Positions 9,955 through 25,467 of a stretch of DNA of 64,000 bases are shown piece by piece; the stretch's first letter is position 1, and each line of letters starts with the position of its first letter. Origin of the DNA: Patescibacteria group bacterium (GTDB lineage: Bacteria; Omnitrophota; Gorgyraeia; Gygaellales; Profunditerraquicolaceae); assembly GCA_035506195.1 (NCBI GenBank), contig DATJPV010000025.1, forward strand, positions 22,494 through 86,493, given 5' to 3'. Position numbers and translations under genes: made by a program. A model generated the notes under the pieces. It worked only from the letters and a program-made list of their open reading frames with translations, was not told the origin of the DNA and searched no databases.

Positions 9955-10553
9955 GGCTGCTCCAGGTGGGCTATGTCGTTAAACTTCTTTATCCGAGGCG
10001 CGGCCTTTCTGTATTCGACTACCGTAACGCTGGTTGCCTGGGGCACATAACGCCAGAAGTCTCTCGTTTTCAATACACTGCTGACGAATATGCCGATGGC
10101 TCCCCCGTGGCAGACTACGGCTACGGTCTTGCCGGGGTTGCTGGAGGCGATCTTGCGTATGGTGCGGCATATCCTTTTCTTGAACGCCCGCATCGGCTCC
10201 GCCTTAGGGATACGATTCTTATAGGGGTCCTTGATCCAGCTTTCATAAAGCCGGCCGTAGGTAGCCGCGATCTCTTCGTGGCGCAGGCCTTCAAGCACCC
10301 CAAAATTTATTTCCCGCAACCCGGCGACCTTGGTGAATCGCGCCCTGCCAAAAATGATACGGCAGGTCTGCACGGCGCGCCTTTTGCTGCTGCAGTATAT
10401 CTTGTCGAAAGAAACCTTCTCCAGTTTCCTGCGCAGCTTCGCCGCCTGCTGCCTGCCTTCGCGGCTTAAGCCCACGTCGAGACGGCCGCAATAGCGCCTT
10501 TGCTTATTCCAGGCGGTTATGCCGTGCCTGATCAAGAAGATCTGCGTGGTCAT
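9951..10553 (-). CDS. cobC: alpha-ribazole-5'-phosphate phosphatase (histidine phosphatase superfamily)
   Basis: RHG motif at the N-terminus (LIRHGITAWN) and a second catalytic His (VCHGGAI). It sits between cobU and btuD. Confidence 0.7.
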   Translation of the reverse strand: MTTQIFLIRHGITAWNKQRRYCGRLDVGLSREGRQQAAKLRRKLEKVSFDKIYCSSKRRAVQTCRIIFGRARFTKVAGLREINFGVLEGLRHEEIAATYGRLYESWIKDPYKNRIPKAEPMRAFKKRICRTIRKIASSNPGKTVAVVCHGGAIGIFVSSVLKTRDFWRYVPQATSVTVVEYRKAAPRIKKFNDIAHLEQP

Positions 10554-11341
10554 GATCCTCCTGCCGGCACCAGCACGACGTTCGGCCTTTTAGTGAGCTG
10601 GTTCGTATTCACCAGCACTATGGTTTTATACACTGCCTCGATGTTCTGATACGTAAGGACCTCCTCAGGGCTGCCCTCTTTGAAGATCGCCCCTTTGTCC
10701 AGCAACGCAATGCGGTTACAGTAAGCGCTGGCCAGGTTCAGATCGTGGAGGATCATGACAATGGTAAGGCTGTTCTTACGGTTAAGCCTTTTCAGCAGGT
10801 CCAACACCTGTATCTGGTGGCCGATATCAAGGTGTGAGGTCGGTTCGTCCAGGAATAGAAGCGCCGGCTCCTGGGCCAGGGCCCGGGCGATGATCACCCG
10901 CTGCCGCTCCCCTGCGCTTAACTCATCGATACGCTTATCTCTTAGGGCAAGCGTATCGGTCAGGGAAAGCGCCTGTTCCGCAATCTCGATATCTCGCTTC
11001 GTCTCAAACTGCATGCGTTTCAAATGGGGAATCCTGCCCATTAGCACGATCTCGATGACCGTGAAGGAAAAACTGCTTAAGATATCCTGCCCCACAAAAG
11101 CCACCCGGCGGCAAAACTCCTTTACTTCCATACGGAAAATATCCCGATCCCCCAAAAGCACCCTCCCCCTGGCAGGCACAAGCACCCGGGTGGCAAAACG
11201 CAGGAGCGTAGTCTTACCCGAACCGTTCGGGCCGATGATGCCCATGCAATCACCCTGATGTATATCAAGGCTGATACCCTTGATCACCTCTTCCTGATAA
11301 TAGCCGCCGGATAGGTTTTTTATTTGTAAAAGCGGTCCCAT
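10550..11341 (-). CDS. btuD: ABC transporter ATP-binding protein, BtuD/FecE-type
   Basis: Walker A GPNGSGKTT, ABC signature LSAGERQR, Walker B LLFLDEP, H-loop. Confidence 0.8.
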   Translation of the reverse strand: MGPLLQIKNLSGGYYQEEVIKGISLDIHQGDCMGIIGPNGSGKTTLLRFATRVLVPARGRVLLGDRDIFRMEVKEFCRRVAFVGQDILSSFSFTVIEIVLMGRIPHLKRMQFETKRDIEIAEQALSLTDTLALRDKRIDELSAGERQRVIIARALAQEPALLFLDEPTSHLDIGHQIQVLDLLKRLNRKNSLTIVMILHDLNLASAYCNRIALLDKGAIFKEGSPEEVLTYQNIEAVYKTIVLVNTNQLTKRPNVVLVPAGGS

Positions 11342-12300
11342 CAGAACCTCCTGCCCTTCTTTAAGATGATCATGAATGCGGGAGCCCCTATTATTGCCGT
11401 AATGACGCCGATGGGTATCTCCATCGGCGCAAAGAGCGTCCGGGAAAGCAGGTCACAGGCGACCATGAATACCGCGGCAGCCAGGCAGGTAGCGGGGATA
11501 AGCGTCTTATGGTTGGGGCCGCAGACCAGGCGCATCATATGGGGTACGATCAGGCCCACGAAACCGATGATCCCGCAGATACAGATGAGGCTGGCAGTGA
11601 TCAAAGCGGTAACAAGAATGAGTATCTTTTTTATGTTCTGCGCATCTATGCCTACGTGCATGGCTTCTTCTTCCCCCATGCTGATGGCATTCAAATCCTG
11701 CGAAAATATATATACCGTGCAGATCCCCAGGATAACCGGTATGGCTACCAACACGACCAGCTTATAATCATACACCTGCATGCTTCCCCATAACCACCAA
11801 TTCATCTCGTGCATGGCAAGGTTGCCGAAAAGGGAAACCAGGAATACGATGATCGAAGAGAATGCCACCGAGACGATCACGCCGGAAAGTATCAGCGAGG
11901 TATCAAGGATCTTGCCTCTGTCCCGGGCCAGGTTATAGACCAGAATGATGCTGGCCAATGCCCCCAGGAATGCGGCCAGCGGCATATAGATGCGCGAAAC
12001 CCCTAAGATAACGGCGATGACCGCAGCCAGGCCCGCGCCGCTTGAGGTACCCAGCAGGTACGGCTCAGCCAAGGGGTTGCGCAGGATCGCCTGCAGGGCT
12101 ATGCCCGAAACCGCCAGGCCGCTGCCGGCGAGGATCGCGACCAACACCCTTAAAAGCCTCAAGTGGAAGATGGCCTGGTTTTTTTCAAGTAAAAGCTCAG
12201 CCGGCGGAATGCGTACTGCGCCCTTCACCAGCGCGTAGATCGCTACGGCGCACAACAGCAAAAATAATACCGGCAATCTTTTGCGTAAAGGCTCGTTCAT
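11341..12300 (-). CDS. btuC: FecCD-family ABC permease, BtuC-like
   Basis: 319 aa, ~9 TM helices, FecCD-type permease blocks (LLGTSSGAGLAAV, GIIGFVGLIVPHMMR). Confidence 0.8.
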   Translation of the reverse strand: MNEPLRKRLPVLFLLLCAVAIYALVKGAVRIPPAELLLEKNQAIFHLRLLRVLVAILAGSGLAVSGIALQAILRNPLAEPYLLGTSSGAGLAAVIAVILGVSRIYMPLAAFLGALASIILVYNLARDRGKILDTSLILSGVIVSVAFSSIIVFLVSLFGNLAMHEMNWWLWGSMQVYDYKLVVLVAIPVILGICTVYIFSQDLNAISMGEEEAMHVGIDAQNIKKILILVTALITASLICICGIIGFVGLIVPHMMRLVCGPNHKTLIPATCLAAAVFMVACDLLSRTLFAPMEIPIGVITAIIGAPAFMIILKKGRRF

Positions 12301-13127
12301 TGTCCGGGGTAGAGTTTTTTATACAATTCTTTTAAGCCTTCGGTTATCCTGGGCCCGGGCCTGAGCAAAAGATCCGGGTCGATATCGTTAAATACCCGTT
12401 TATTTTTCACCGCTTCGATGCCCGCCCAGCCAAAACGGCCCTCGACCAGCCTCAGGGGCGGCTCTTTATCCATGTAGGCCAGGATGATGACCTGAGGATT
12501 CAAACTGACCACCTTCTCAGCGCTGAAAATCGAATAGGGCCTGTTTACTTGATGCCCCACGTTGATCCCGCCGGCCAGGGTGATCATCTCATCAATAAAG
12601 GAGCCTCGCCCGGCAGTCATGAGCGGCTCATGCCAGATCTCGACAAAGATCCTTGTTCTTCTGTCTTGCGGAATGAGCTTCACCTTTGCACTGACTGCCC
12701 TGATGTCATCGCGCATCCTGGCGATCAGGGCTTGAGCCTCTTTTTCCCTGGCGGTGATCTTTCCGATGTCCCGAATGGAAGAAAACAGTTCCTCGATGTT
12801 CGCAGGGTCGGCGATGTAGACATTCAACTTGAGGCGCTTTAGCTCGGCAATCGTCCCTGCCTGCTCAAGGCCGGTGCAAAAAACGTAATCGGGCCTGGCG
12901 GCAACGATCTGCTCCATGTTGGGGTGGCTGAAATCTCCGACGCGGGGCTTATGCGCGGCCTCGGCAGGATAGTTACAGTATGCGCTCACTCCCGCAACGG
13001 ATTCGCCTAACCCCAGGGCAAAAAGGATCTCCGTGGTCGAAGGCGCAAGGGAAATGTAGCTGGGTGCAGCCACGGCATTGCCGCAGATCAAAGAAAAAAA
13101 GACGAAAAGTAAAATTGTCTTGTTCAT
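12297..13127 (-). CDS. btuF: periplasmic corrinoid/siderophore-type substrate-binding protein, BtuF-like
   Basis: Signal peptide followed by a class-III SBP fold. It is the first gene after the cobalamin riboswitch. Confidence 0.75.
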   Translation of the reverse strand: MNKTILLFVFFSLICGNAVAAPSYISLAPSTTEILFALGLGESVAGVSAYCNYPAEAAHKPRVGDFSHPNMEQIVAARPDYVFCTGLEQAGTIAELKRLKLNVYIADPANIEELFSSIRDIGKITAREKEAQALIARMRDDIRAVSAKVKLIPQDRRTRIFVEIWHEPLMTAGRGSFIDEMITLAGGINVGHQVNRPYSIFSAEKVVSLNPQVIILAYMDKEPPLRLVEGRFGWAGIEAVKNKRVFNDIDPDLLLRPGPRITEGLKELYKKLYPGQ

Positions 13128-13169: not shown

Positions 13170-13372
13170 AAATAGTTACTTGGCCCTGTCCACGAGGCGT
13201 TGCTTTAATATAGGCAGGTCTTCTGGCTCGGGTATCATTCTAGTTGCTGCGTCTTCCCATCCCGGGTTCTTGAGGGACAGTGACTATTGCAGCTTTCGTC
13301 CACCCTTACAGCGGCGGGACCGCACTCGCTTTCACGAGTTTCCCTTGTCCTATATTACCGTATTGTCGCTTC
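13170..13372 (-). promoter_or_regulatory. cobalamin (AdoCbl) riboswitch aptamer
   Basis: The minus-strand sequence contains the hallmark core GGACAAGGGAAACTCGTGAAAGCGAGTGCGGTCCCGCCGCTGTAAGGGTGGACGAAAGC. This is the AAGGGAA / GTGAAA element plus the B12 box GTCCCGCCGCTGTA. It sits 5' of a btu/cob operon. Confidence 0.85.
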
Positions 13373-13410: not shown

Positions 13411-16092
13411 TTAGGGAGCCTGTGTGCTAAAATATGCCTGCAGTATCGCGTTAGCGATATTGGCGGCTAAAAGCCTGTAGCCTTTGTCCGTACAATGATC
13501 GTCAAAATCGATAAGATACTCTCCGTAGCCTTCGCGCGCTATGGCCTCCTTGAACGCCTTCTCATTATCTACGAATACTATCCCGGCCTGTCCTTCGAAT
13601 ATATCCTTCAACGGTGTGACGCTAGCCGTAGGGGTCTGCACGCAGATCAAGGGTATGTTTCTTTTATCGAGGACCTCCTTGATCTTGCGGTAGTTGCCGG
13701 CGGTCACAGGGTCATAACGGAAATGCGCGTTGTCTTCTTTTTTACTTTCTTTTTTCAAAGCGGCCAACATGCGGCTCTCCCTGTCTTTGGTGCCGGAAAA
13801 ACGCATGATTTTCTTGAGGGTTTCTTCTGCCTGAGCAAGCTTGCCTTCCTTCAGATAAGTCCCTCCCAGATCGATATACGCTTGCTCATTCCCGGGATTA
13901 AGCTCTATGGCTTTCCCGAATGCCTCTTCCGCCCGGATGAGCTTCCCTTCTTTCAGGCGGAGCCAGCCGAGGTCGAAATACACACGATCGCTTCGGGGGC
14001 TAAGCTCTATGGCTTTCTGGAACGATTCTTCTGCCGGGCCGAATTTGCCCTGTTGCGAGTATACTGCTCCTAACAGGCGGTACGGCCAGTCGCTTGCGGG
14101 ATTGCACGCGATAGCTTTTCGGGCGACGTCTTGCGCCTGAAGAAGCTTATCCTGCTTCATGTAAAGCTGCCCCAGTTCGCAATACGCCTGCTCATTCCCA
14201 GAGTCAAGCGCTATGGCTCTACCGTAAAACTGTTCTGCCTGGGCAAATTGGGCCTGCCTTGCGCAGGACTGCCCCAGGCCGCGATATCCCTGCGGATTCC
14301 GCCCGTTAAGCGCGATGGCCTTTTGGAACATTTCTTCTGCCAAGCCGAAATTATCCTGCCCCAAGCAGCTCCACCCCAGGTTAAGATAACTATTCTCGTT
14401 CTGAGGGTTAAGCGCGATACCCTTTTTAAGCGTTTCTTCCGCCTGGGAAAGTTTATGCTGCTGCAAATACGCCAGCCCCAGGTCAAAATAACCCTGCTCA
14501 TCTTGAGGGTCGAGCGTGATGGCCTTTTGGAACGATTCTTCTGCCCGGGGAAAATTATCCTGCTGCAGGTAAGCCCGGCCGAGTAAAAGGTGTGCCTGAC
14601 CATTGCCGGGATCGACTACGATGACCTTCTGATACATTTCTTCTGCCTGGGCAAATTTGCCTTCCAGTAAATAGCTGCCTCCCAGGTCAAAATAGCTTTG
14701 TGCTTTCCGGGGGTCAACTGCGATGGCCCTTTGGAACACTTCTTCTGCCCGGGGAAAGTTGCCCTGCTGCAGGTAGCGCTGCCCTAAATCGCAATAATAG
14801 GGGTATACTTGTGCGCTTTGAGGGCTGGCCCTTACCGCTTGCGCGAATGCCTGCTCTGCCTCGGGAAGCTTACCCTGCCTTAGGCAGGCTTGGCCCAGAA
14901 AAAGATACGCCCGGTCATCGCCGGGATTGACCCTTACTGCCTGCGCGAATGCCTGCTCTGCCTTAAGAAATGCGCGCTGTTGCAGGTAACCGCCTCCTAA
15001 GTCAAAATAGCCTTGTTCTTGCTGGGGGTCAAGCGCGATGGCCTTGTGGAACGCTTCTTCTGCGCGGGGGAAGTTGCCCTGCTGCAGGTAGCGCCGTCCT
15101 AATTCGCAATAATCAAAATACACGGATGCAAACCCGGGATTAAGCGCGATGGCCTTCATGAACAACGTCTCTGCCTGAGGAAGCCTATTCTGCCGCAGGT
15201 AAAGCTGCCCCAGCCCTTGATAGCCGTGTTCATTGCGGGGGTTGAGCGTGATAACCTTGTTCAGGGCCTCTTCGGCCCGGGCGCATTTGTCCTGCTTCAA
15301 GTAAACCCGGCTTAACAGCAGATACGCTTCGTCGCTGGCAGGCTTAAGCGCCAGGACGGTCTTGAATGCCTCTTCGGCCTGGGCGCATTTGTCCTGCTTC
15401 AAGTAAACCCGGCCCAGGGAAAGCAGGGAATCGACGTTACCGGGATCGGCCAGTACGGCCTTCTTAAGCGCGCCTTCTTGACGGACAAGCTGGGCCTGCT
15501 TTAGCTGGTCAGGGGCTGGCGCGGTCTTGCCGGGGGCCTGCGGCGCCGAAGGGGATATAACCTGACGGGGCTTTACCGCTATGCTTTTTTTAAGCGGCCT
15601 GCCGATGAAGAGCCCTCGTGCCGGAGTAAGGATAGCCCGCCAAACGGTCATGGCCAGCTTATAGGTCCGCAGGGATTCTACCCATGCATGCGCCCGGGGC
15701 GACGGGTGGGCATAATAGTTCTCTGTCCTGCCAAGCATGGTGACAACCAGCTGAGGCTTATACGTAACAAGGTAACGCTCCAGCTGGCTTAAAACGAAGA
15801 AAGAATCGGAGCCCGGTACGACCTTGTCGATCACGCTGAAGCGCACCCCCGGATGGCACCGATTTAAGATCTTTTCCAGATGGCGGGGGTAGCCTCCCGT
15901 AGTGGAATCCCCCACGCAGAGGATGCGATAACTGCCCTGTGTGCGGAAAGAAGCCTTATTCTTGTATTCCTGCAAAAGGAAGTAGGCGCCTCCGGCCAGC
16001 CGCAAACTCAGCTCCAGCGCCGCCAGCAATAGAAGCGTTCTGACTAGAGCAAAGATTATCTTCTTATGCAAAATCCCCTCCCTAAAACGCAA
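13411..16092 (-). CDS. membrane-anchored SGNH/DltD-like hydrolase whose catalytic blocks are separated by a ~650-aa TPR array
   Basis: An N-terminal TM helix is followed by SGNH block I (ILCVGDSTTGGYP). About 19 TPR units follow (aa ~200-730), with internal triplications. The C-terminal region carries SGNH block V (DFDDHCTDKGYRLLAANIANAI, DxxH). It is the last gene of the Dlt-like operon. Confidence 0.7.
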   Translation of the reverse strand: MRFREGILHKKIIFALVRTLLLLAALELSLRLAGGAYFLLQEYKNKASFRTQGSYRILCVGDSTTGGYPRHLEKILNRCHPGVRFSVIDKVVPGSDSFFVLSQLERYLVTYKPQLVVTMLGRTENYYAHPSPRAHAWVESLRTYKLAMTVWRAILTPARGLFIGRPLKKSIAVKPRQVISPSAPQAPGKTAPAPDQLKQAQLVRQEGALKKAVLADPGNVDSLLSLGRVYLKQDKCAQAEEAFKTVLALKPASDEAYLLLSRVYLKQDKCARAEEALNKVITLNPRNEHGYQGLGQLYLRQNRLPQAETLFMKAIALNPGFASVYFDYCELGRRYLQQGNFPRAEEAFHKAIALDPQQEQGYFDLGGGYLQQRAFLKAEQAFAQAVRVNPGDDRAYLFLGQACLRQGKLPEAEQAFAQAVRASPQSAQVYPYYCDLGQRYLQQGNFPRAEEVFQRAIAVDPRKAQSYFDLGGSYLLEGKFAQAEEMYQKVIVVDPGNGQAHLLLGRAYLQQDNFPRAEESFQKAITLDPQDEQGYFDLGLAYLQQHKLSQAEETLKKGIALNPQNENSYLNLGWSCLGQDNFGLAEEMFQKAIALNGRNPQGYRGLGQSCARQAQFAQAEQFYGRAIALDSGNEQAYCELGQLYMKQDKLLQAQDVARKAIACNPASDWPYRLLGAVYSQQGKFGPAEESFQKAIELSPRSDRVYFDLGWLRLKEGKLIRAEEAFGKAIELNPGNEQAYIDLGGTYLKEGKLAQAEETLKKIMRFSGTKDRESRMLAALKKESKKEDNAHFRYDPVTAGNYRKIKEVLDKRNIPLICVQTPTASVTPLKDIFEGQAGIVFVDNEKAFKEAIAREGYGEYLIDFDDHCTDKGYRLLAANIANAILQAYFSTQAP
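13900..15490. repeat. in-frame tandem TPR-coding repeats (102-bp and ~306-bp periodicity)
   Basis: Near-identical peptide blocks recur, e.g. CELGRRYLQQGNFPRAEEAFHKAIALDP and CDLGQRYLQQGNFPRAEEVFQRAIAVDP. Mirror-image antisense ORFs (13495..14073 and 14131..14586) reflect the same DNA periodicity. Confidence 0.7.
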
Positions 16093-17536
16093 CGTACAGG
16101 AACTGCTTTCCGATATGCTGGCCCAACATCAGCAGCAGGACCAGCAATACCACATAAAATATATCCCTGGCGAGGAAATGCCAGCGCAAGACGATCAAAA
16201 GATCATTTTTGATGTATTGCATGATCTCCAGGGCTACGAGTATCGAAACAAAGAACAAGATGCCTGCCGCTATCTCCAGGGAATCGCGCGAAATGGCGAA
16301 TCCAAAGACCAGCCTGTGCATGAAATCCCCTATCTGAGGAGCGGATTGAGCCATAAAGAGAAGCTCTCCGAAAACAAAAAGATGGAAGGTCAGGATTATT
16401 TTGAGCGCATCTACCAGGGCGCGCCTTCTTCCCGTAAAGGAAAAACCGAATTTCCCCCAGAGCGGGCGCGCAAGGACCTGCACGCTCATCAGGACGCCGT
16501 GGTATAACCCCCATAAGACAAAAGGCCATGCCGCCCCGTGCCAGAGCCCCATCACTGCCATGGTCGCCAGGATCGCCCCTGGCGCCCCCTCCGCGCGCGT
16601 AGCCCCCAGCCTGATCCGTAGCCGATTAAAGTAATAAAAAACATAGTCCCTGCACCAGCTCGACAAGCTGATATGCCACCGGCGCCAGATCTCCAGGGGG
16701 CTCTTGGCAAAAAAAGGAAGATTGAAATTCAACATTGTCTTGAATCCCAGGCAACCCGCCGTTCCGATCGCGATATCCGAGTATCCCGAGAAATCCGCAT
16801 ACAGCTGAAAGGTAAACGCGTAGGCGGCCAAAAGGATCTGGAAGCCGGAACCGGCATTGTCTGCGGAAACAAGGTTTGCCACGACCAGCGCCAGGTTGTC
16901 GGCGATGAAAAACTTCTTGAACACCCCCCAGAAGATCAAGTAGAGGTTTTCGCCGAAAGCAGCCCACTCAAACCGCCTTGAGCCGGCAACCTGCGGCATA
17001 AAATGCACTGCCCGCTCGATGGGGCCGGCCAGGAAGTGCGGGAAAAAAGACAAATACAGCGCATAGTCCCCCAGGTTTCTGACCGGCCGGGTGATGACGC
17101 ACCTATACACGTCTATGGTGTAGCTCATGGATTTAAAGAGGTAATAGGAGATCCCGACAGGCAAGATGATATTCAGATGCAGCGGCGCGACATTCCTGAT
17201 CCCTGCGGCGCCTAACACCGCCGTGAGATTCTGCACGAAGAAATCAAAATACTTAAAAAACCCCAGGAGGCAAAGGTCCGAGGCGATACTAATCCACAGG
17301 AAGAACGTTTTTCTCTTTTTCGTCTCTGCCCGAAAGATCCGTATACCGCAGGCGTAATCGACAACGGTGGGGACCAGTATCAGCAGGGGAAAGCGCCAGT
17401 TCAGGCATAGATAAAACGCATAACTTGCCGCTAAAAGAAGGACGTTCTGTTTGCGCCAATCCAGGCGCCAGTAGATCAAAAGGAAAGGCAGGAGGAATAA
17501 AAGCTTAAACGGGGCAAAGATCATGAATGAGGACAT
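16082..17536 (-). CDS. MBOAT-family membrane O-acyltransferase (DltB/AlgI-like)
   Basis: 484 aa, ~11 TM helices, with a conserved MBOAT His-containing C-terminal region (RRWHISLSSWCRDYVFY). Confidence 0.85.
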   Translation of the reverse strand: MSSFMIFAPFKLLFLLPFLLIYWRLDWRKQNVLLLAASYAFYLCLNWRFPLLILVPTVVDYACGIRIFRAETKKRKTFFLWISIASDLCLLGFFKYFDFFVQNLTAVLGAAGIRNVAPLHLNIILPVGISYYLFKSMSYTIDVYRCVITRPVRNLGDYALYLSFFPHFLAGPIERAVHFMPQVAGSRRFEWAAFGENLYLIFWGVFKKFFIADNLALVVANLVSADNAGSGFQILLAAYAFTFQLYADFSGYSDIAIGTAGCLGFKTMLNFNLPFFAKSPLEIWRRWHISLSSWCRDYVFYYFNRLRIRLGATRAEGAPGAILATMAVMGLWHGAAWPFVLWGLYHGVLMSVQVLARPLWGKFGFSFTGRRRALVDALKIILTFHLFVFGELLFMAQSAPQIGDFMHRLVFGFAISRDSLEIAAGILFFVSILVALEIMQYIKNDLLIVLRWHFLARDIFYVVLLVLLLMLGQHIGKQFLYVAF

Positions 17537-17539
17537 GAC

Positions 17540-18820
17540 TTAATCGAATTCTCCTGCGGCATGGCTCCGGCGGATCACGGAGGCGCGCGCGCCGTCGACA
17601 AGCAATTCAAGCGGCGTTTCGTGGGATAAAAACAGTATGGGGCTTGCGGTATAGGTATACGCGCCGGAAGTCAAGACCGCGATATACTGGCCGGCCTGCG
17701 GTTTCTTAAGGAGCAGGTCCTCCGCGATTATATCAAGGGAAGCGCACAGGGGCCCGACGAGCGTTACCCGCTCCGCCGCAATCCTGCCCGTGCAAGAAAT
17801 ATTGACGACCCGCAGATTCCGGCGGATAAAATTACCCAACCGGCCGCTGGCTGCCAAATGATGATTGATGCCGCCGTCTAAGACGCAGAACTTCTTTCCC
17901 CTGGACTCCTTGACGTCCACGATGCGCGCGACATAGATCCCCGCCTGCGCAACCAGGTAGCGGCCCAGCTCCAGTATCCCCGTACAGCCGGAAAGGCCTG
18001 TCTTGCGCTTGAACCGCCCAAACTGACTCGATATGCCGGAACAAACCCGCCTGACGTCGATTTCGCTCTGCCCTTCGTAATAGGGGACGCCGAACCCTCC
18101 CCCGAAGTTGACGGATCTTATTTCCAGGCGAGTTGCTGCGTAGACCTCTTCGGCGATATTTAACGTAGAGACGGCGTTATCCAGAAGCGTTGCCTCATCC
18201 AGGCACTGCGTGCCCGAGTACACATGGATACCGACAAAACGGCACCGGCGCATGCCTTCGAGGAGACGGAAAAAACCGCCCCATTTCTCTTGGTCGATGC
18301 CGAAAGGCGACGCCAGGCCTCCCATTTTGACCGGGAACTTTCTTTGCGGCCTTGCTGGATTTATCCGTATCGAGACAGCGGCCTTTCGCTTTTGCGCTGC
18401 AGCGATCCTGTCTATCCTGACCAGCTCGGTAAGCGACTCTACGCTGAGCGAGCCGATCCTCCGGGAAACGGCCAATGACAGCTCCTCCTCCGTTTTTCCC
18501 GGCCCGGCAAAGCTTATGCGCGAGGGACAACAACCTGCCTTTAAGGCCCGTGTAAGCTCCCCGCCGGAGGCAACATCAACCCCGTCTACCAAAGGCAGCA
18601 TGCGCTTAAGAAGCCCGAGGTTAGGGTTGGCCTTTATCGCGTAATACAGTTTTATATCGTCGCTTAAGCCCTCGCGCACCGCCCGGATCTTTTGCGCGAT
18701 ACACTGCCAGTCATATATAAAAAAGGGGGTATCGTACTTTTGGAGATTGACGCCCCTTAGGTAGGTGCGGCCGTTACGGACCTTAAGCCCTAATCCGGTC
18801 ACTGTGCTTTTCTTATGCAT
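17540..18820 (-). CDS. fold-type III PLP-dependent decarboxylase (Orn/DAP/Arg decarboxylase family)
   Basis: PLP-lysine motif YAIKANPN, glycine-rich FGGGFGVPY, and a C-terminal beta-barrel domain. The length and order match diaminopimelate decarboxylase-like enzymes. Confidence 0.75.
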   Translation of the reverse strand: MHKKSTVTGLGLKVRNGRTYLRGVNLQKYDTPFFIYDWQCIAQKIRAVREGLSDDIKLYYAIKANPNLGLLKRMLPLVDGVDVASGGELTRALKAGCCPSRISFAGPGKTEEELSLAVSRRIGSLSVESLTELVRIDRIAAAQKRKAAVSIRINPARPQRKFPVKMGGLASPFGIDQEKWGGFFRLLEGMRRCRFVGIHVYSGTQCLDEATLLDNAVSTLNIAEEVYAATRLEIRSVNFGGGFGVPYYEGQSEIDVRRVCSGISSQFGRFKRKTGLSGCTGILELGRYLVAQAGIYVARIVDVKESRGKKFCVLDGGINHHLAASGRLGNFIRRNLRVVNISCTGRIAAERVTLVGPLCASLDIIAEDLLLKKPQAGQYIAVLTSGAYTYTASPILFLSHETPLELLVDGARASVIRRSHAAGEFD

Positions 18821-19076
18821 CCGATGCTTTTATCTCCGTTATAAGAGAGGCCATGCCCTGAATAGAGCGGAACCGCTGATCAAAGAAATGCTCCTCCTGG
18901 AAGGTGACGCCGAAGGTCTCTTCAAGGAATGTTGCCAGTTCAAACGCCCCCATAGAGTCAATGACGCCGGTTTCAAAAAGATTCTGCCCGTCGCTTAAGT
19001 CTTTTTCGCTGGCCCGTAGCCTGCGGACCAGATACGCCTTTATCTTCTGCCTGATATCATTCTCGCTTACACGCAT
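18813..19076 (-). CDS. acyl/peptidyl carrier protein (DltC-like)
   Basis: 87 aa with a 4'-phosphopantetheine attachment motif (GVIDSMGAFEL). Confidence 0.8.
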   Translation of the reverse strand: MRVSENDIRQKIKAYLVRRLRASEKDLSDGQNLFETGVIDSMGAFELATFLEETFGVTFQEEHFFDQRFRSIQGMASLITEIKASDA

Positions 19077-20527
19077 ACGTATCCTGCCGCCTTTTTCGCC
19101 CTAAGCCGGTCGATCTTTCCCGCGGCTGTCTTCGGCATGGCATCCACGAACACTATTTCCCGGGGCATCATGAATTCGGGAAGATGCTCTTTGCAGGCAT
19201 CCAGGATATCCTGCGCGCAGGTTCCTTTTGCTTTCTCGTGCAGAGAAATGACGGCCTTGATCTTATGGCCGCGCAGGTCATCCTCAACTCCGAAGACAAC
19301 CGCCTCCCTGACCTGCGCAACCCTGCAGAGAGCGTCTTCGATCTCCTGCGGACTGATCCGGTGGCCGAGGCATTTTATCATTTCATCATTCCTGCCGATG
19401 AAATACAAAAATCCCTCTTCGTCTTTTTTCACGATGTCGCCGGACCATACCGCCATCTCTTCGCCGCCAGGAGCCGGCCTTAAAATCTTCTTTGTCTCCT
19501 GCGGATCATTCCAATACCCCTGGAAAACGACCCCCCCGCAATGAAGCAGAACCCCCTCTTCCCCGGGCAGGCACTCCTTGCCTTCTTTATTGATAACCAG
19601 TATGCGTACCCCGGGGATGGGTTTACCGATAGAGCCCGGCCGGCGCGCAAGCTCATCGGGAGGCAGGTACGTCGAACGAAAAGCCTCGGTCAAACCGTAC
19701 ATCAGATAGATCTGCGTGCGCGTCAGCACTTTTCTTAACTCGTCGAGATATCTGCCGGGGATGGCCCCTCCGGAATTGGTGACGTAGCGCAGGTCCGGAA
19801 AGGACATTTTTTTAAAAGACGAAATATCCTGCAGGAGCATGACCCATACGGTCGGTATCCCGGCAAAGCCGGTGATGCGCCTGGCCAGGAGGGTCTTGCA
19901 GATATCGTTGGGGAACATCGATCTTTGCAGGACCAGTGTCCCGGCCGCAAGGCAGGCGGTTAACAGCTGGCTCAGGCCGTAATCAAAACTAAACGGCAAT
20001 ACGCCAAGGATGACATCCTCATCCGTATTGCCTAAATACCCTGCCACCACCCGCGCCCCTAAAACCAGGTTCCCGTGGCTAAGGACAACTCCCTTGGGAT
20101 AACCGGTGGAACCAGAGGTGTATATGATGGCAGCCGTATCGTTTTCGGTCAATGCCGGCATCGCCAGGCAGGCCCCGGCATCCCCTTTGCACAAAGAATC
20201 AAACTCCGAGGCATCGATAATACAGCGCATGCCGCAATTCTCGGCGCGATAAGAGACCTGGCTGCGGGTAAGCGTCGGGCCGATATCGACAAAGATCCCT
20301 CCTGCCTTGGAGATACCCCAGATAGAAATGACCTCTTCGATGCTCTTCTCCAGCACAATGCCGACCCGGTCCCCCTTTTTTATGCCCCTGGAAATCAAAG
20401 AACAGGCCAGGGCGTCGGAACGGATCTCCAGCTCCTTATATGAGATGCCCCGGTCATTTTCTAGGACGGCAGGCTTTTCGGGGAAAAGCGCGGCGCTCTG
20501 GCGCAATATATCAGGGAGTATACGCAT
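19067..20527 (-). CDS. AMP-dependent synthetase/ligase, carrier-protein-loading adenylation enzyme (DltA-like)
   Basis: AMP-binding motifs (TSGSTGYPKGV, YGLTE, conserved C-terminal K). The ORF extends to 20638, but the likely start is MRILPDILRQ at 20527, 11 nt downstream of an extended -10. Confidence 0.8.
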   Translation of the reverse strand: MRILPDILRQSAALFPEKPAVLENDRGISYKELEIRSDALACSLISRGIKKGDRVGIVLEKSIEEVISIWGISKAGGIFVDIGPTLTRSQVSYRAENCGMRCIIDASEFDSLCKGDAGACLAMPALTENDTAAIIYTSGSTGYPKGVVLSHGNLVLGARVVAGYLGNTDEDVILGVLPFSFDYGLSQLLTACLAAGTLVLQRSMFPNDICKTLLARRITGFAGIPTVWVMLLQDISSFKKMSFPDLRYVTNSGGAIPGRYLDELRKVLTRTQIYLMYGLTEAFRSTYLPPDELARRPGSIGKPIPGVRILVINKEGKECLPGEEGVLLHCGGVVFQGYWNDPQETKKILRPAPGGEEMAVWSGDIVKKDEEGFLYFIGRNDEMIKCLGHRISPQEIEDALCRVAQVREAVVFGVEDDLRGHKIKAVISLHEKAKGTCAQDILDACKEHLPEFMMPREIVFVDAMPKTAAGKIDRLRAKKAAGYVCV

Positions 20528-20547: not shown

Positions 20548-20609
20548 AACTGCCGTGCGCGTGCGATAGGCGAAGTTTGTTCTTTATTGCCGGGAGAAAA
20601 TGGGCTACA

Positions 20610-22205
20610 ATGATGCGTATGAAGATAGCCTGCATCACGATAAACTCTCTGGATAATTATGCCGGGATCCCGAAATGGAGATATTCCCTGCCATTTGCCT
20701 ACCTGCAAAGCTACTATACGCTGTCGAAATTCCATAGCCGCACGCAGTTCGTCGACATCGTCAAGGACGTCAACGCGGATGAGCCCGAATTGCTGGATGC
20801 CATAGAAAAAGAGTCTCCGGACGTGGCGGCTTTTTCCTGCTACGTCTGGAACACGCAAAAAGTATGCAGGCTCCTGCCCAAAATACGAAAGCGCCTCAGG
20901 CAGACCCGGATCGTAGTCGGCGGCCCCGAGTGCACCCCTGATTTCATGGGGCTGCTGGAGCCCGGCTCTTATTTCGATGTCCTCGTAAAAGGCGAAGGGG
21001 AAACGGTATTCCGTCAGCTCATCGACACTCTGCATGAAACCGGCGGGATCGCGCACGATATCCCGGGGACCATCTGTTATGCAAAGGCAGCGCGCCGCTT
21101 CATCGAAAACCCCGATGCCCAGCCGCTTAGGGATATCAATGCCATACCTTCTCCATACCTAAACGGCATCATCGATGTCAAAGGGCTGGCAAGCTCGGTG
21201 ATCGGGATAGAGACCCAGAGAGGCTGCGCCTATCACTGCGGCTATTGCAGCTATCCTAAAGGCGCCAAGACGATACGCTATTTCGATATGCAGCGGATCC
21301 TTCGGGAACTGGACCTTATTCTGGCGGCAGGACCCCGGCAGCTGTATCTGATGGACCCGATGTTCAATTCCGACCGGAACCGGGCAGGGCAGATACTGCG
21401 GCACATCGGCAAAAAAAATACCGCGCCCAAAACCGTCATCAACACCGAGATCCTTATCGATACCATGGATGAAACATTGTTTGCGCTTGCGCGCAAGGCG
21501 GGAGTCAAAACGATCGAGGTGGGGATCCAAAGTTTCAATCCTGTTGCGATAAAAAACCTCCACCGGCACCGCAACGAAAAGAAGCTCCTGGCGAACATGC
21601 GCACAGGCTTAAAATACGGACTCAACCTGATCCCGCAGATCATCTACGGGCTTCCGGGGGATACGCTCGGCGATTTCTTCGATTCTTTCGACAGGATGTA
21701 CGCGTTTAAGGTAAAAGAACTTGACCTGTTCCGGCTCTTGATCCTGCCGGGCACCGAATTCAGGAAAAAAGCGCTGTTGTACGGCATGACCTATGATGCC
21801 GCGCCGCCCTATGAGATAAGGTCGAACGGACAACTCTCGGTAAAAGAAGCCGACTATCTGGATCTGTTCAGAAAGGTGGTTCTGTGCACCGTCTGGTACA
21901 AAGAAGTTATCATGCAGATCTGCCGGAAGGCCCATTTGCCATACCACCAGCTCTTTAACGGGTTTGTGGCAGCGCGGAGAAGATCCCTGGAAAATACCAT
22001 CTTCGACTGGCCGATACACTCGAAGGAAGACAAGGACAGCGCCATGCGCATAGTCAGGCGCTTCAGCGATTATTTAGGAAAAACGGCGGGGCGCTCGAAA
22101 GGAACGTACGAGCCGATCCGGCGCAAGATCGCGCAAGCCGAAGCCTATACCAAGAAGGTCCTGCTTTTTAGATACTTAAGCGTCCGCAGCACTAGGCCTG
22201 TTTAA
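20610..22205 (+). CDS. cobalamin-binding (class B) radical SAM enzyme
   Basis: An N-terminal Rossmann-type B12-binding domain (RIVVGGPECTP) followed by a radical SAM CxxxCxxC (CAYHCGYC). Alternative starts exist at 20613 and 20619 (MKIACIT). TACAAT at 20606-20611 would make the 20619 start leaderless. Confidence 0.8.
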   Translation: MMRMKIACITINSLDNYAGIPKWRYSLPFAYLQSYYTLSKFHSRTQFVDIVKDVNADEPELLDAIEKESPDVAAFSCYVWNTQKVCRLLPKIRKRLRQTRIVVGGPECTPDFMGLLEPGSYFDVLVKGEGETVFRQLIDTLHETGGIAHDIPGTICYAKAARRFIENPDAQPLRDINAIPSPYLNGIIDVKGLASSVIGIETQRGCAYHCGYCSYPKGAKTIRYFDMQRILRELDLILAAGPRQLYLMDPMFNSDRNRAGQILRHIGKKNTAPKTVINTEILIDTMDETLFALARKAGVKTIEVGIQSFNPVAIKNLHRHRNEKKLLANMRTGLKYGLNLIPQIIYGLPGDTLGDFFDSFDRMYAFKVKELDLFRLLILPGTEFRKKALLYGMTYDAAPPYEIRSNGQLSVKEADYLDLFRKVVLCTVWYKEVIMQICRKAHLPYHQLFNGFVAARRRSLENTIFDWPIHSKEDKDSAMRIVRRFSDYLGKTAGRSKGTYEPIRRKIAQAEAYTKKVLLFRYLSVRSTRPV

Positions 22206-24388
22206 GGCTGCCGGTATGGCGCCAGCGCCTCTTGCAGCTTGGCATTTTTCAAACCGCACTCACTTGCTTTATCGCAATACTCAATAGCCAGCTTGTACTG
22301 TTTCTGCTTAAAATAATACTTAGATAAATTATCATAGGCTCTGGCATGCTTCGGATCGGCCTCTATCGCCTTCTTGAAGAATGCGACGGCTTCGCCTTCC
22401 CTGCCGAGCTTGTAGTACACCGAGCCGATATTGTTAAGCACTCTTGCATACTTTGGCGCAAGCGCAAACGCCTTGTGGTAAACCGCCAAGGCATCCTGAT
22501 ATTTCTGCATCCTCTCATACACCACGCCTAAATTATAATAGGCGTCTACGTAGGCGGGGTCTATCGCGACGGCCTTAAGGTATGCCTTCTCTGCTTCCGG
22601 GAACTCTTTCTGGTGCGTATAGGCGTTGCCCAGATTATAGTAAGCCTTGGCGTAATCCGGCTCGCATTGTATCGCCTTCATGTATAAGGCCATTGCCTCC
22701 CGGACCTTTCCTTGCTTTTCATACACCGAGCCGAGGTTATTATAGGCGACCTCCTCGTCAGGATTCAGCGATATGGCTTTCTTGTACAAGGCGATCGCCT
22801 CTTCGGTTTTTCCCATCTGCTCATAAATGACGCCGAGGTTATTGTACGGCGTCACATAGTTGGGATTTGCCTTGATCGATTCCTTGTAGAGGGCTATCGC
22901 GGTGTCAAAATGACCCGCCTTTTCGTTCATGACCCCCAGGTTATTATAGGGGATAGCCGCCGAGGATTCCGTCTGCAGGGGCTTCTTGAACAGCGCCATA
23001 GCCTCCTGATACAGGCCAAGCCTTTCATATATCGTCCCCAGGTTATTGAGCGCCCGTGCGTTGTGCGGCTCAAGCGCCAGGAGCCTTTTCAGCAGATCTA
23101 TGGCCTTGTCTAATTCCCCTTGCTCCTTATAGATGTTGCTTAAGTTCAGCAGGGCAATGGTACTGTGGGGATTATATTTGAGCAACCTGGTATAGGTTTC
23201 CTGCGGATTCCTCCAGAACTTATTCTGCGCCATACTGAGCGCTGAATACGCCAGTACCAGGCAGGCTGCCAGGGCCGTGGCGCAATATGCGCATTTCTTG
23301 ATCCTGGATAAGCGCGAAAAACCCGCTGCCAGAAGAAGGCATACCCCCAGGGAAGGCAGGTATAAAAAATGCTCTGCCATATAAGAAAACAACGGATAGA
23401 TGTTGGAGACGGGCGCCAGAGAAATCAGAAACCAGGATATGCAGAAAAATACCAGGGGGCTGCCCCTCTTGGACCTGAAGATATACAGGAAGGCATACAC
23501 TAAAAAAGCGGCTACCAGGCCCATGCCGAGCAGCGCCTGGGGATGGCTGAACTTAAAAAGGGGCCGGCCGTAATCGATGTGCAGATTATACGGCAGGACC
23601 ATCAGGCGGATATAATTTGTGATAGCCACAAAAAGCCCGGGCACCCTTTCAAGGGCGCTATGCGCGACGCCTGCCTTGAGGCTGGCTACTTTAAAAAGGA
23701 ACGAACGCGCAAAAAGATACGCACCGGCCATGCCGCACAACAGGACAAAAACGCTTACACGCGCCGGCTTCCGGAAGCAGGCGTGATAGAGCGCCAGCAG
23801 CGCGGGAAACACGATGCCGTTTTCCTTAAGCAGGAGTATCGCCGCAAAACACAGCACCAGCAGCGCCGTATTGCGCAAAACCCTCTTATCCTCCAGCTGC
23901 TTTACATAAAAGATCAGGCCCAGCAGTATGCACAAAACAACCAGCAGGTCGGCGCGGTCGGAGATATAGGCTACCGACTCAACCTGCACGGGGTGCGCGA
24001 CAAAAAACAGGGCCGTCAACAGCGCCAGGAGCTTTTCTTGAAAAAGTATAAGGATGAGCCAGTAGACGGCCAGCGCAACCAGAATATGCAAAATGGTATT
24101 GGTGAGATGGTAGGTGGAGCTGTTCAATTTCCCGAAGGTGTAGCTGATCCTGAAGGAAAACGTCGTCAGGGGGCGGTAAAATCCGAAGCGCGCCTTGCCT
24201 CCGGGAGAAAAATCATCGTTGATGACCTTCGATAGCGTAAGGCCGCTTTTGATGCGGGGGTTCTGTTCGATCACGAATTGATCATCCAGAACAAACTTGC
24301 CGTGCAACGAATTCGCGTAAATCGCGCATCCTAAAACCGCTATCAAAAACAAAGGTACGAATGATCGTAAGAAAACGGATCTGGTCAT
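22202..24388 (-). CDS. TMTC-like protein: N-terminal GT-C/PMT-like polytopic membrane domain fused to ~13 C-terminal TPRs
   Basis: ORF 22202..24592; the likely start is MTRSVFL at 24388. About 11 TM helices with a DUF1736/PMT_2-like conserved region (HLTNTILHILVALAVYW...VAHPVQVESVAYIS). The C-terminal half is canonical TPR (AYNNLG, AYYNLG repeats). Confidence 0.7.
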   Translation of the reverse strand: MTRSVFLRSFVPLFLIAVLGCAIYANSLHGKFVLDDQFVIEQNPRIKSGLTLSKVINDDFSPGGKARFGFYRPLTTFSFRISYTFGKLNSSTYHLTNTILHILVALAVYWLILILFQEKLLALLTALFFVAHPVQVESVAYISDRADLLVVLCILLGLIFYVKQLEDKRVLRNTALLVLCFAAILLLKENGIVFPALLALYHACFRKPARVSVFVLLCGMAGAYLFARSFLFKVASLKAGVAHSALERVPGLFVAITNYIRLMVLPYNLHIDYGRPLFKFSHPQALLGMGLVAAFLVYAFLYIFRSKRGSPLVFFCISWFLISLAPVSNIYPLFSYMAEHFLYLPSLGVCLLLAAGFSRLSRIKKCAYCATALAACLVLAYSALSMAQNKFWRNPQETYTRLLKYNPHSTIALLNLSNIYKEQGELDKAIDLLKRLLALEPHNARALNNLGTIYERLGLYQEAMALFKKPLQTESSAAIPYNNLGVMNEKAGHFDTAIALYKESIKANPNYVTPYNNLGVIYEQMGKTEEAIALYKKAISLNPDEEVAYNNLGSVYEKQGKVREAMALYMKAIQCEPDYAKAYYNLGNAYTHQKEFPEAEKAYLKAVAIDPAYVDAYYNLGVVYERMQKYQDALAVYHKAFALAPKYARVLNNIGSVYYKLGREGEAVAFFKKAIEADPKHARAYDNLSKYYFKQKQYKLAIEYCDKASECGLKNAKLQEALAPYRQP

Positions 24389-25467
24389 CGGGCGGCCTTT
24401 GCGTTGTGAATAAAAAAGTTCAGCAGTTTTTTTGCGGGCGTCAGGCATGCCATGGAAGTCTTTACGTCCCGCAGGTCGATATTCTCCACCGTCGGCCAGC
24501 TGACGATCTTTACTTCCAGCTTCTTTGCCGCCCCGGCTCCTACCCCTGAAGCGGGGATAAACTTTTTCTCCTTGATGCGGCCCCGGAGGCAAAAGATGAC
24601 GCTGCGGCCCAGGCGGGATCTTAGAAAATCGGTTTTCAGCTGCTGCCTGTCGATATGCGCCTGTCTTGCAAACAGATCGAACAGCTCGGAAAATGCATAG
24701 CCGGCGGGCGCGCTTTTCGCAAGGCCCCTTGCCGGCACACAGCTGCGGAAACGGATCTGGGAGATAAAATGGGTTCGGCGCATGGCAAACATAAGCAGAT
24801 CATTGAGTTCCCGGTCATTCAAGCCGCGATACACCGTAACAGAGAGAATAGTCGCCACGCGCTGGCGCGCAAGATTCAGGAGGGCCTTCTTTTTTGCCGC
24901 CAGGATATTCCGGTTGCCGGAAAGCTTCTCATAGAAGGCGCTCTTTAAGCTGTCGAAAGAAAAAAGTACCTGACCCAGGCCTGCTCTTTTCAGGCTCCTC
25001 ACATATCGTTCATCCGCAAGCCTCAGGCCGTTGGTTTCCAGGACCGCTTGTTTTCCGGAAGCCTTGACCGCCCTGATAATCCGGGGCAGGTCTTGGCGCA
25101 ACGTAGGTTCTCCGCCGGAAAGCTCTACCGACTCCCCTTTAAAATCCTTCACGGCCTGCCGTATTTCGTCAAAGGCCGTATCCGACGTACGGGAGGAACC
25201 GGTAAAACAATATGCGCAACGCACATTGCATCTATGCGTTACCGGCAAAAACATGATCGTAAAATGCAGGGGCTTGCGTAGCGGTATGCCGGCAAACCAC
25301 CGGTAGAACACGGGGTCTTTTTCTACCAGGCCAACAGACGTTCCGTGCCGGGGGCAGGCCTTACGGATAAGGACCCTGCCGCCTTCTTCATAGATACGTG
25401 CAGGGGCCTTGCGGCAGCATACATTGCAAAGGCCCGTGGTCTTGCGGTTTAGCGCATGCATAATCAA
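24385..25467 (-). CDS. radical SAM enzyme with N-terminal Cys4 zinc-ribbon/rubredoxin-like motif
   Basis: N-terminus CNVCC...(19 aa)...CPRHG, then a radical SAM CxxxCxxC (CNVRCAYC) and a glycine-rich SAM motif (ELSGGEPTL). Confidence 0.7.
   Translation of the reverse strand: MIMHALNRKTTGLCNVCCRKAPARIYEEGGRVLIRKACPRHGTSVGLVEKDPVFYRWFAGIPLRKPLHFTIMFLPVTHRCNVRCAYCFTGSSRTSDTAFDEIRQAVKDFKGESVELSGGEPTLRQDLPRIIRAVKASGKQAVLETNGLRLADERYVRSLKRAGLGQVLFSFDSLKSAFYEKLSGNRNILAAKKKALLNLARQRVATILSVTVYRGLNDRELNDLLMFAMRRTHFISQIRFRSCVPARGLAKSAPAGYAFSELFDLFARQAHIDRQQLKTDFLRSRLGRSVIFCLRGRIKEKKFIPASGVGAGAAKKLEVKIVSWPTVENIDLRDVKTSMACLTPAKKLLNFFIHNAKAAR

Follow-up and report, generated by a model that had tools for sequence, protein, structure and literature searches.

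What does a pyridoxal phosphate (PLP)-dependent decarboxylase do in an operon that otherwise recalls the Dlt system of teichoic-acid D-alanylation? The question is raised by five minus-strand genes in a 64-kb stretch of contig DATJPV010000025.1 (this whole stretch is referred to here as the window), where such an enzyme is encoded between a carrier protein and a membrane acyltransferase of the MBOAT family. A first-pass annotation of this DNA had described a single Dlt-like operon in which a ligase-loaded carrier feeds an MBOAT and SGNH pair, and our analysis supports this description. We propose that the operon encodes a carrier-dependent MBOAT-SGNH envelope acylation system in which the acyl donor would be built on the carrier itself; from sequence comparison and analogy with characterized pathways, we put the probability of this reading at about 0.6. 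A more specific version, for which we see roughly even odds, is that Omnitrophota-like bacteria ester-decorate an outer-envelope glycopolymer with an omega-aminoacyl group (beta-alanyl or 4-aminobutyryl, possibly C-methylated) through a carrier-fed MBOAT of PatA/AlgI architecture, which would constitute a new class of pathway.

The operon opens with the gene for a stand-alone adenylating ligase of the ANL superfamily that resembles the adenylation (A) domains of nonribosomal peptide synthetases (NRPSs) (19067-20527, minus strand; 486 amino acids [aa]; Pfam AMP-binding and AMP-binding_C). The genes that follow, all on the same strand, encode an 87-aa carrier protein that has Ser41, in IDSMG, as its phosphopantetheine site (18813-19076; Pfam PP-binding), a fold-III PLP decarboxylase of the BtrK/TIGR03099 type with Lys63 in YAIKANP (17540-18820; Pfam Orn/DAP/Arg-decarboxylase fold), an MBOAT acyltransferase whose core resembles DltB and whose C terminus carries a fused shuttle motif (16082-17536; Pfam MBOAT), and an 893-aa SGNH-like, membrane-anchored protein with an array of TPR repeats (13411-16092; TPR families, GDS and D..H blocks). 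All five open reading frames (ORFs) are present in the order originally described, with domains assigned by Pfam. The accompanying statement that every junction overlaps is correct for three of them (ligase/carrier, 10 nucleotides [nt]; carrier/decarboxylase, 8 nt; MBOAT/SGNH, 11 nt), but the decarboxylase and MBOAT genes are separated by a 3-nt spacer. Moreover, the interval initially given for the whole system, 16082-20527, is too short, as the SGNH gene lies beyond it. The next operon, btuFCD, is headed by a cobalamin riboswitch (RF00174, 91 bits) at 13196-13368 on the minus strand, and we therefore place the end of the present one at 13411. The NCBI record of the same contig has an identical ligase start (HTY45031.1) and names the ligase "AMP-binding protein," the carrier "acyl carrier protein," and the decarboxylase (HTY45029.1) "exosortase A system-associated." A scan for promoters and terminators gave nothing informative for the operon.

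The decarboxylase, ligase and carrier protein

Among all solved structures, the best match of the decarboxylase is BtrK (263 bits, E = 3e-77), whereas LysA reaches 168 bits at best. BtrK is the L-glutamyl-[BtrI acyl-carrier-protein] decarboxylase of butirosin biosynthesis. Profile searches place the window enzyme in the same TIGR03099/BtrK type, with TIGR03099 as the top NCBIfam model (420.9 bits, cut-off 478.45) and lysA at 252 bits, below its cut-off of 298. In a residue-level alignment, motifs characteristic of LysA are replaced: NDLIRPxxY by NHHLAAS (MHHHAAS in BtrK), CE(S/T)GD by CASLD (CTPED in BtrK, with a family consensus of CTxLD), and HxHxGSQ by HVYSGTQ (HVYTGTQ in BtrK). The Arg and Tyr of the first of these grip the distal carboxylate of diaminopimelate (DAP) in LysA. 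With DAP motifs lost and BtrK-like motifs in their place, the enzyme therefore has derived traits of a characterized decarboxylase of carrier-bound substrates. The assignment to the DAP/ornithine-decarboxylase family stands at the level of the superfamily; judged by these scores and motifs, however, the enzyme is neither a diaminopimelate nor an ornithine decarboxylase. It is instead predicted to strip the alpha-carboxyl from a carrier-tethered amino acid, which the first-pass annotation had offered as an alternative and which the likeness to BtrK supports. An alanine racemase identity was also considered and rejected, as the enzyme belongs to the decarboxylase family by both Pfam and NCBIfam.

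The ligase has TIGR03098 as its best NCBIfam model (536.4 bits, cut-off 592.35), and its best solved-structure matches include NRPS A domains and VinN, the enzyme that loads the carrier VinL in vicenistatin biosynthesis. A special kinship with LgrA (307 bits) was rejected, since this score is the sum of two A domains (132 and 172 bits). To place the specificity-code positions, we used core motifs to map the ligase onto the GrsA-PheA sequence, which is a motif mapping and not a structural alignment; counting along the GrsA-PheA sequence used here reproduces the published identities at positions 235, 236, 239, 278, 299, 301, 322, 330, and 331. The equivalent code of the window ligase reads D-Y-S-A-T-S-M-R-S-K. 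By this motif mapping, D182 (D235 of GrsA), R284 (position 330), and K471 (K517 of GrsA) are invariant in 83 of 83 ligases encoded next to a decarboxylase, so that the pocket combines an amine-binding Asp, a carboxylate-binding Arg, and the A10 Lys. In VinN, the counterpart of D235 is D230, which holds the amino group of the substrate, while K330 and R331 (GrsA 330 and 331) hold its carboxylate, and the bulkier residues F231 and S299 (GrsA 236 and 301) impose a binding mode for beta-amino acids (PMC11253843). At the positions of F231 and S299, the window ligase has Tyr and Ser, respectively. As the carboxylate-binding Arg is kept, the substrate probably retains a carboxyl, and we predict that the ligase attaches Asp or Glu by its side-chain carboxyl to the carrier.

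Comparison of pocket classes bears on the choice between these two amino acids. There are three such classes. The class DANATTMRSK comprises 32 ligases, and DYNATSMRSK, the class nearest to the DYSATSMRSK of the window, comprises 25. Another class, DYNPCTMRSK, comprises 10 ligases, all 10 of them in loci with glutamate mutase genes; these enzymes presumably use 3-methyl-Asp. Because three small substitutions separate the window's class from DYNPCTMRSK, Asp (giving beta-alanyl) is slightly favored over Glu (giving 4-aminobutyrate, GABA). A related locus that lacks a decarboxylase, L147, provides a further comparison. Its ligase has the code S-Y-S-A-T-A-M-R-S-K, in which the amine-binding Asp has become Ser and the Arg is retained. 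That this Asp is gone precisely where no decarboxylase is encoded agrees with the view that the two enzymes of the window act on one shared amino-dicarboxylate.

The carrier has the type II peptidyl carrier proteins PltL and PigG as its best solved relatives, with DltC at E = 6e-4. Two DltC models score 24.4 and 19.6 bits against it and do not reach their cut-offs (68 and 52, respectively).

The MBOAT, its SGNH-like partner and their recurrence

The sole solved-structure matches to the MBOAT sequence are DltB entries (6bug and 8jem, 107 bits), and both functional His residues are kept, His288 in RRWHISLS and His333 in GLWHG. The LTA_dltB model of NCBIfam gives 176 bits (cut-off 375), and homologues of the protein are annotated as AlgI by JGI. 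At about 480 aa, the window MBOAT exceeds DltB in length by some 60 residues and has FLYVAF at its end (residues 479-484; 16085-16102, minus strand), which a motif search identified as a match to FxYxxF; this motif is found in 115 of 120 homologues. FxYxxF acts as an "acyl shuttle" whose Tyr carries the acyl group from the MBOAT to its SGNH partner, a role shown for DltX and PatA; it resides on the DltX microprotein in Dlt and is fused to the MBOAT C terminus in PatA, AlgI, and others (PMC12148441). With the shuttle fused to the MBOAT in the window, DltX would not be needed, and the listed ORFs (at least 60 aa) at 13411-20527 comprise only the five operon genes, with no separate DltX-like microprotein among them. 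Tyr481 is predicted to form the acyl-Tyr intermediate. The 2025 study that describes the shuttle also states that MBOAT pathways other than Dlt draw on acyl-CoA and for this reason have no carrier protein (PMC12148441). The window MBOAT thus presents the PatA/AlgI architecture in Dlt-like company: its shuttle is fused, yet a carrier and a ligase are encoded beside it.

This combination recurs among the closest relatives of the protein. A homology search with the MBOAT returned a separate top tier at 50%-77% identity, below which identity falls to 46% or less. All six top-tier MBOATs with readable context (those of the window and of loci L081, L082, L146, L147, and L148) lie beside a carrier and an AMP-ligase. 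For L149, a member of the next tier, the surroundings are those of an ordinary polysaccharide locus, in which a GDSL protein is encoded but no carrier is annotated. When the top tier is compared with 110 other homologues, 22 strongly conserved columns differ. One of these columns holds an Arg in 95% of the other homologues, whereas all of the top-tier members (10 of 10) have Ile there and DltB has Leu; this may reflect the loss of a contact with CoA. The carriers follow the same division: those of top-tier MBOAT loci score 72-98 bits against the window carrier, and those of the common ligase-carrier-decarboxylase trios with a GNAT-type gene score 20-48 bits, and carrier sequence therefore tracks the MBOAT clade rather than the decarboxylase.

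In the 893-aa protein, an N-terminal membrane helix is followed by a block I-like CVGDSTT (Ser63), and a DFDDHCT (His866) lies near the C terminus. About 590 residues of TPR repeats separate the N-terminal half with GDS from the C-terminal half with DFDDH. An AlphaFold2 model (pLDDT 81) has a transmembrane (TM) helix at residues 4-50, a beta-alpha-beta-alpha-beta segment at 54-119, TPRs at 194-783, and an alpha-beta-alpha-beta-alpha segment at 795-887. Profile matches to the N-terminal segment are weak (NonGDSL, E = 0.0025; DUF459, E = 0.049); the dozen nearest homologues of the same architecture (P0121-P0133) carry precomputed PF13472 or PF00657 assignments, and G61, S63, D862, and H866 are invariant in an alignment of such homologues. 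Profiles for DltD detected no sequence similarity in this protein with its TM helix, GDS, D..H, and TPR insertion. An SGNH domain split by the TPR insertion is likely, and we predict that the protein is the final transferase to the acceptor polymer.

The module as a whole was found in four loci. One of them, L146, is fully syntenic with the window, with the order divergent B12-binding radical S-adenosylmethionine (SAM) gene, ligase, carrier, decarboxylase, MBOAT, and TPR/SGNH gene, at identities of 55%, 58%, 55%, 51%, 53%, and 30%, respectively; the L146 orthologue of the 893-aa protein also has the same layout. The same gene set occurs in two Omnitrophota genomes (L081 and L082). Given the conserved order in L146 and the recurrence of the gene set in L081 and L082, the arrangement is not a chance one. 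A phmmer comparison found no similarity between the downstream proteins of L081 and L082 and the 893-aa protein.

The ligase-carrier-decarboxylase trio is far more broadly distributed than its link to an MBOAT. In a species-level genome sample, it is widespread over many phyla, with a ligase of this family upstream of the decarboxylase in 50 of the 61 genome loci with enough flanking sequence. An MBOAT is near the trio in only two of these 61; otherwise GNAT-like or FemAB-like genes come after it, in polysaccharide loci. What is unusual is therefore the coupling to an MBOAT, since the donor-building module itself is common. Scanning metagenomes with the decarboxylase recovered only relatives of 42% identity or less and two further MBOAT-linked loci.

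Other top-tier MBOATs keep different company. L147 (3722-9006) encodes an MBOAT and a ligase that are each 53% identical to those of the window, a similar carrier, and a 539-aa partner, with no decarboxylase. Its MBOAT may be fed by the carrier and deliver a dicarboxylic acyl group without an amine, for example succinyl. In L148 (248-9333), a top-tier MBOAT gene stands beside genes for a carrier, an Aminotran_1_2 enzyme, HMGL-like, NicX, and RraA-like proteins, and a different ligase. Carrier-fed MBOATs may thus receive a range of tailored acyl groups, and the absence of a decarboxylase from L147 together with the other tailoring enzymes of L148 suggests a family of such MBOATs serving diverse acyl groups.

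Proposed route, precedents and competing explanations

In the route that we propose, the ligase would adenylate Asp or Glu at the side-chain carboxyl and form a thioester on the phosphopantetheine of Ser41, as its pocket residues and the precedents described below suggest. The PLP enzyme would then, by its homology to BtrK and its synteny, remove the free alpha-carboxyl to leave beta-alanyl-S-carrier or 4-aminobutyryl-S-carrier; at this stage, the neighboring B12-binding radical SAM enzyme may methylate the carrier-bound acyl group. Following the precedent of DltB and PatA, the MBOAT would use His333 to move the aminoacyl group across the membrane to its own Tyr481. Ser63 of the SGNH-TPR protein would take over the acyl group and esterify an extracytoplasmic glycopolymer. 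The polymer would thereby acquire cationic esters, in a modification functionally analogous to teichoic-acid D-alanylation.

The later steps of this route have their closest counterpart in Dlt. There, too, a small stand-alone carrier is charged by an adenylating enzyme and hands its aminoacyl group to an MBOAT for passage through the membrane; the last transfer falls to an SGNH protein anchored in the membrane, by way of an acyl-Tyr shuttle in FxYxxF. However, the window has no D-Ala-specific DltA (no DltA model is among the best 25 NCBIfam matches of the ligase), its specificity code (D-Y-S-A-T-S-M-R-S-K) holds a carboxylate-binding Arg, a PLP decarboxylase is inserted in the operon, the shuttle is fused to the MBOAT rather than carried by a separate DltX, and the SGNH-like protein has a TPR insertion. 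The window proteins also do not meet the cut-offs of the DltA, DltB, and DltC profiles. Nor can the acceptor be assumed to be a teichoic acid, since a TonB-dependent receptor and TolQ, both encoded in the window, suggest a diderm host. PatA/PatB and AlgI/AlgJ share with the window an MBOAT of about 480 aa, an FxYxxF fused on extra C-terminal helices, and an adjoining membrane-anchored partner, SGNH in those systems and SGNH-like here. Those systems, though, use acetyl-CoA and are stated to operate without a carrier (PMC12148441), whereas the window translationally couples a ligase, a carrier, and a decarboxylase to an MBOAT whose clade has lost an otherwise conserved Arg.

For the early steps, precedent comes from antibiotic biosynthesis, so far the only setting from which on-carrier decarboxylation is known. 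According to a 2024 review, Glu or Asp is adenylated (BtrJ, CtaD, FlvN) and joined to an acyl carrier protein (ACP) by its side-chain carboxyl, after which a PLP decarboxylase (BtrK, CtaF, FlvO) takes off the alpha-carboxyl to give GABA or beta-alanine (PMC11350588). In vicenistatin biosynthesis, a glutamate mutase makes 3-methylaspartate, VinN loads it onto VinL, and VinO decarboxylates the thioester only (PMC11284099). As in the BtrJ/I/K (butirosin), VinN/L/O (vicenistatin), FlvN/L/O (fluvirucin), and CtaD/E/F (closthioamide) modules, an acidic amino acid would be tethered by its side chain to a stand-alone ACP and alpha-decarboxylated by an enzyme resembling DAP decarboxylase, a reaction that yields GABA, beta-alanine, or 3-aminoisobutyrate in those modules. 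The window decarboxylase is nearest to BtrK, the ligase pocket resembles that of VinN, and the stand-alone carrier and the adenylating enzyme are adjacent, encoded in the window by overlapping genes. BtrJ itself is an ATP-grasp enzyme and not an ANL ligase. The systems differ in destination: the product passes to a polyketide synthase (PKS), an NRPS, or a cytoplasmic aminoglycoside acyltransferase in the natural-product modules, and would pass to an MBOAT-SGNH pair in the window.

The vicenistatin logic is itself found in polysaccharide loci. Some trios have their ligase and decarboxylase genes on either side of glutamate mutase genes, which encode GlmE, a GlmL-like protein, or a fused B12-binding/Met_asp_mut_E protein (L016, L023, L026, L027, L029, L037, L040, L041, L049, L052, L053, and L142). 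Their hosts include Acidobacteriota, Proteobacteria, and other lineages, and they have the distinct pocket class DYNPCTMRSK. These trios represent a vicenistatin-like 3-methylaspartate logic within polysaccharide loci.

The best profile matches of the window ligase and decarboxylase, TIGR03098 and TIGR03099, are described as "exosortase A system-associated," and the same trio occurs in many extracellular polysaccharide loci together with PEP-CTERM-type glycosyltransferases and amidotransferases. Both window proteins score under the curated cut-offs given above, however, and in those loci a GNAT-like or FemAB-like gene comes next, not an MBOAT. The two models are "hypothetical equivalogs" without assigned chemistry. 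Among the window genes scanned, there was no exosortase match and only a generic TPR similarity to PrsT. Literature searches found no described system with this component set, in agreement with the earlier remark that no characterized Dlt-type system of this kind is known. As we read it, the operon joins two known pathways, Dlt-like export and on-carrier decarboxylation, in a combination not described before.

Could the trio and the MBOAT-SGNH pair instead be independent functions that share an operon? The trio would then supply an omega-amino acid to a cytoplasmic acyltransferase or a natural product, and the MBOAT would use acetyl-CoA to O-acetylate a polysaccharide. In most genomes the trio does precede a GNAT-like or FemAB-like acyltransferase rather than an MBOAT, as the count of 2 in 61 attests, and the fused FxYxxF is of the PatA/AlgI type, whose members are described as carrier-free users of acyl-CoA (PMC12148441). 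We nonetheless consider this explanation unlikely. The genes overlap or lie 3 nt apart, with no acyltransferase in the operon besides the MBOAT/SGNH pair; the six top-tier MBOATs all stand beside a carrier and a ligase, even where the tailoring enzymes differ; carrier sequence follows the MBOAT clade; an Arg conserved elsewhere is lost both in this clade and in DltB; and the 64-kb window contains no PKS or NRPS. A different division of labor was favored by the first-pass annotation, in which the PLP enzyme decarboxylates an unbound amino acid (for example, meso-DAP to L-lysine, or ornithine to putrescine) and its product is adenylated, loaded, and exported, resulting in lysyl esterification. 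Membership in the DAP/Orn/Arg decarboxylase superfamily and the 252-bit lysA match are in keeping with this, as are close relatives of the enzyme, in L143 and L144, that have no ligase or carrier nearby. Yet the lysA score is under its cut-off and well under the BtrK-type scores, the window enzyme has other residues in place of the Arg/Tyr motif of LysA and of the Glu that follows the catalytic Cys, the ligase has an invariant Arg where VinN binds a substrate carboxylate, and L147, the locus without a decarboxylase, is exactly where the amine-binding Asp has gone. The proposal that the enzyme makes a free amino acid such as L-lysine is not supported by these comparisons, and we regard it as very improbable. 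Long-chain-fatty-acid-CoA ligase profiles also match the ligase, at about 300 bits and all far below their cut-offs, which raises the idea of a lipid system in which a fatty-acyl-AMP ligase and the MBOAT would acylate a lipid or polymer with a fatty acid. This we find scarcely credible: the ligase combines an FD motif containing the invariant amine-binding Asp with an invariant pocket Arg and the A10 Lys, an NRPS-like pocket on which we rejected the fatty-acyl-AMP ligase type; NRPS A domains and VinN are among its best solved matches; and a PLP decarboxylase has no role on a fatty acyl chain.

Several points weigh against our own proposal of a donor built on the carrier and exported by the MBOAT. 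The ligase code comes from a motif alignment to a GrsA sequence and not from a structural alignment, and the ligase of L081 is of another type, without the D235 and R330 equivalents, despite the presence of a decarboxylase, a carrier, and an MBOAT in that locus. Close relatives of the decarboxylase in L143 and L144 lack a neighboring ligase or carrier, as noted above. Decarboxylase sequences also do not discriminate between Asp and Glu: BtrK scores do not split these enzymes by ligase pocket class, and the decarboxylases of class A and class B ligases show no discriminating alignment column. MBOATs of the PatA/AlgI type normally take acyl-CoA, and carrier-independent action is possible in principle. 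Finally, the SGNH fold of the 893-aa protein is backed only by motifs, weak profiles, the Pfam labels of its homologues, and the pattern of secondary structure.

MBOAT-SGNH pairs are general bacterial machinery for the acylation of envelope polymers, which governs charge, resistance to antimicrobial peptides and lysozyme, and biofilm properties. These systems are currently divided into Dlt, with a carrier donor and a separate DltX, and all others, with an acyl-CoA donor and a fused shuttle; the window operon would mix a carrier donor with a fused shuttle. If our reading is true, it predicts a new cationic polymer decoration and a diderm counterpart of teichoic-acid D-alanylation, and it would be an exception to the published rule that only Dlt uses a carrier. 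Natural-product-style carrier chemistry would then serve envelope remodeling, and a chemistry could be assigned to the widespread, uncharacterized "exosortase A-associated" ligase and decarboxylase families.

Surroundings of the operon

Divergent to the operon lies the gene for a B12-binding radical SAM protein of the KedN5-like C-methyltransferase family (20577-22205, plus strand; Pfam B12-binding and Radical_SAM; KedN5 NCBIfam model, 130 bits). It is the only B12-binding radical SAM gene of the window that has a module-adjacent orthologue elsewhere, in L146 (55% identity). Those near the module in L082, L100, and L147 share 21%-26% identity with the window's and are not orthologous. We treat the product of 20577-22205 as a possible accessory of the module. 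Two other B12-binding radical SAM genes (25553-27031, plus strand; 27035-28513, minus strand) cluster with it around the operon, and a Tes/TrsS-like radical SAM gene with an HMPTM zinc ribbon is located at 24385-25467 on the minus strand. In addition to these three B12-binding genes and one further radical SAM gene, the window holds genes for a membrane-plus-TPR protein, a MOP flippase, a family 2 glycosyltransferase (GT2), and a methyltransferase, a content consistent with an envelope polysaccharide locus.

On the other side of the operon, btuF-, btuC-, and btuD-like genes lie beneath the cobalamin riboswitch (10550-13127), with cobT and cobS further downstream (7642-9430) and a gene for a TonB-dependent receptor of the B12 type at 5117-7096. 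A block for B12 uptake and salvage thus directly adjoins a locus rich in B12-dependent radical SAM enzymes. The window also encodes TolQ/ExbB and Mrp/Nuo-type membrane subunits along with the TonB-dependent receptor. The nearest relatives of the operon proteins belong to Candidatus Omnitrophota, and the NCBI label of this metagenome-assembled genome, "Patescibacteria group bacterium," looks doubtful.

A 796-aa ORF at 22202-24592 (minus strand) combines a multi-helix N-terminal half that matches no Pfam family with an array of TPRs toward the C terminus; translation probably begins near an internal Met (MTRSVFLRSF...), since the long N-terminal extension overlaps the radical SAM gene at 24385-25467. 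Within the polysaccharide block, a gene of the Glu/Leu/Phe/Val-dehydrogenase family (30734-31954, minus strand) lies between a methyltransferase gene (29911-30729) and a GT2 glycosyltransferase gene (31938-32939), an unusual place for an amino-acid dehydrogenase. Two large surface-type proteins are encoded farther along on the minus strand, one of 1234 aa with an inverse-autotransporter beta-domain and right-handed beta-helix repeats (34480-38184) and one of 1262 aa with fn3, PKD, and CarboxypepD_reg domains (39192-42980).

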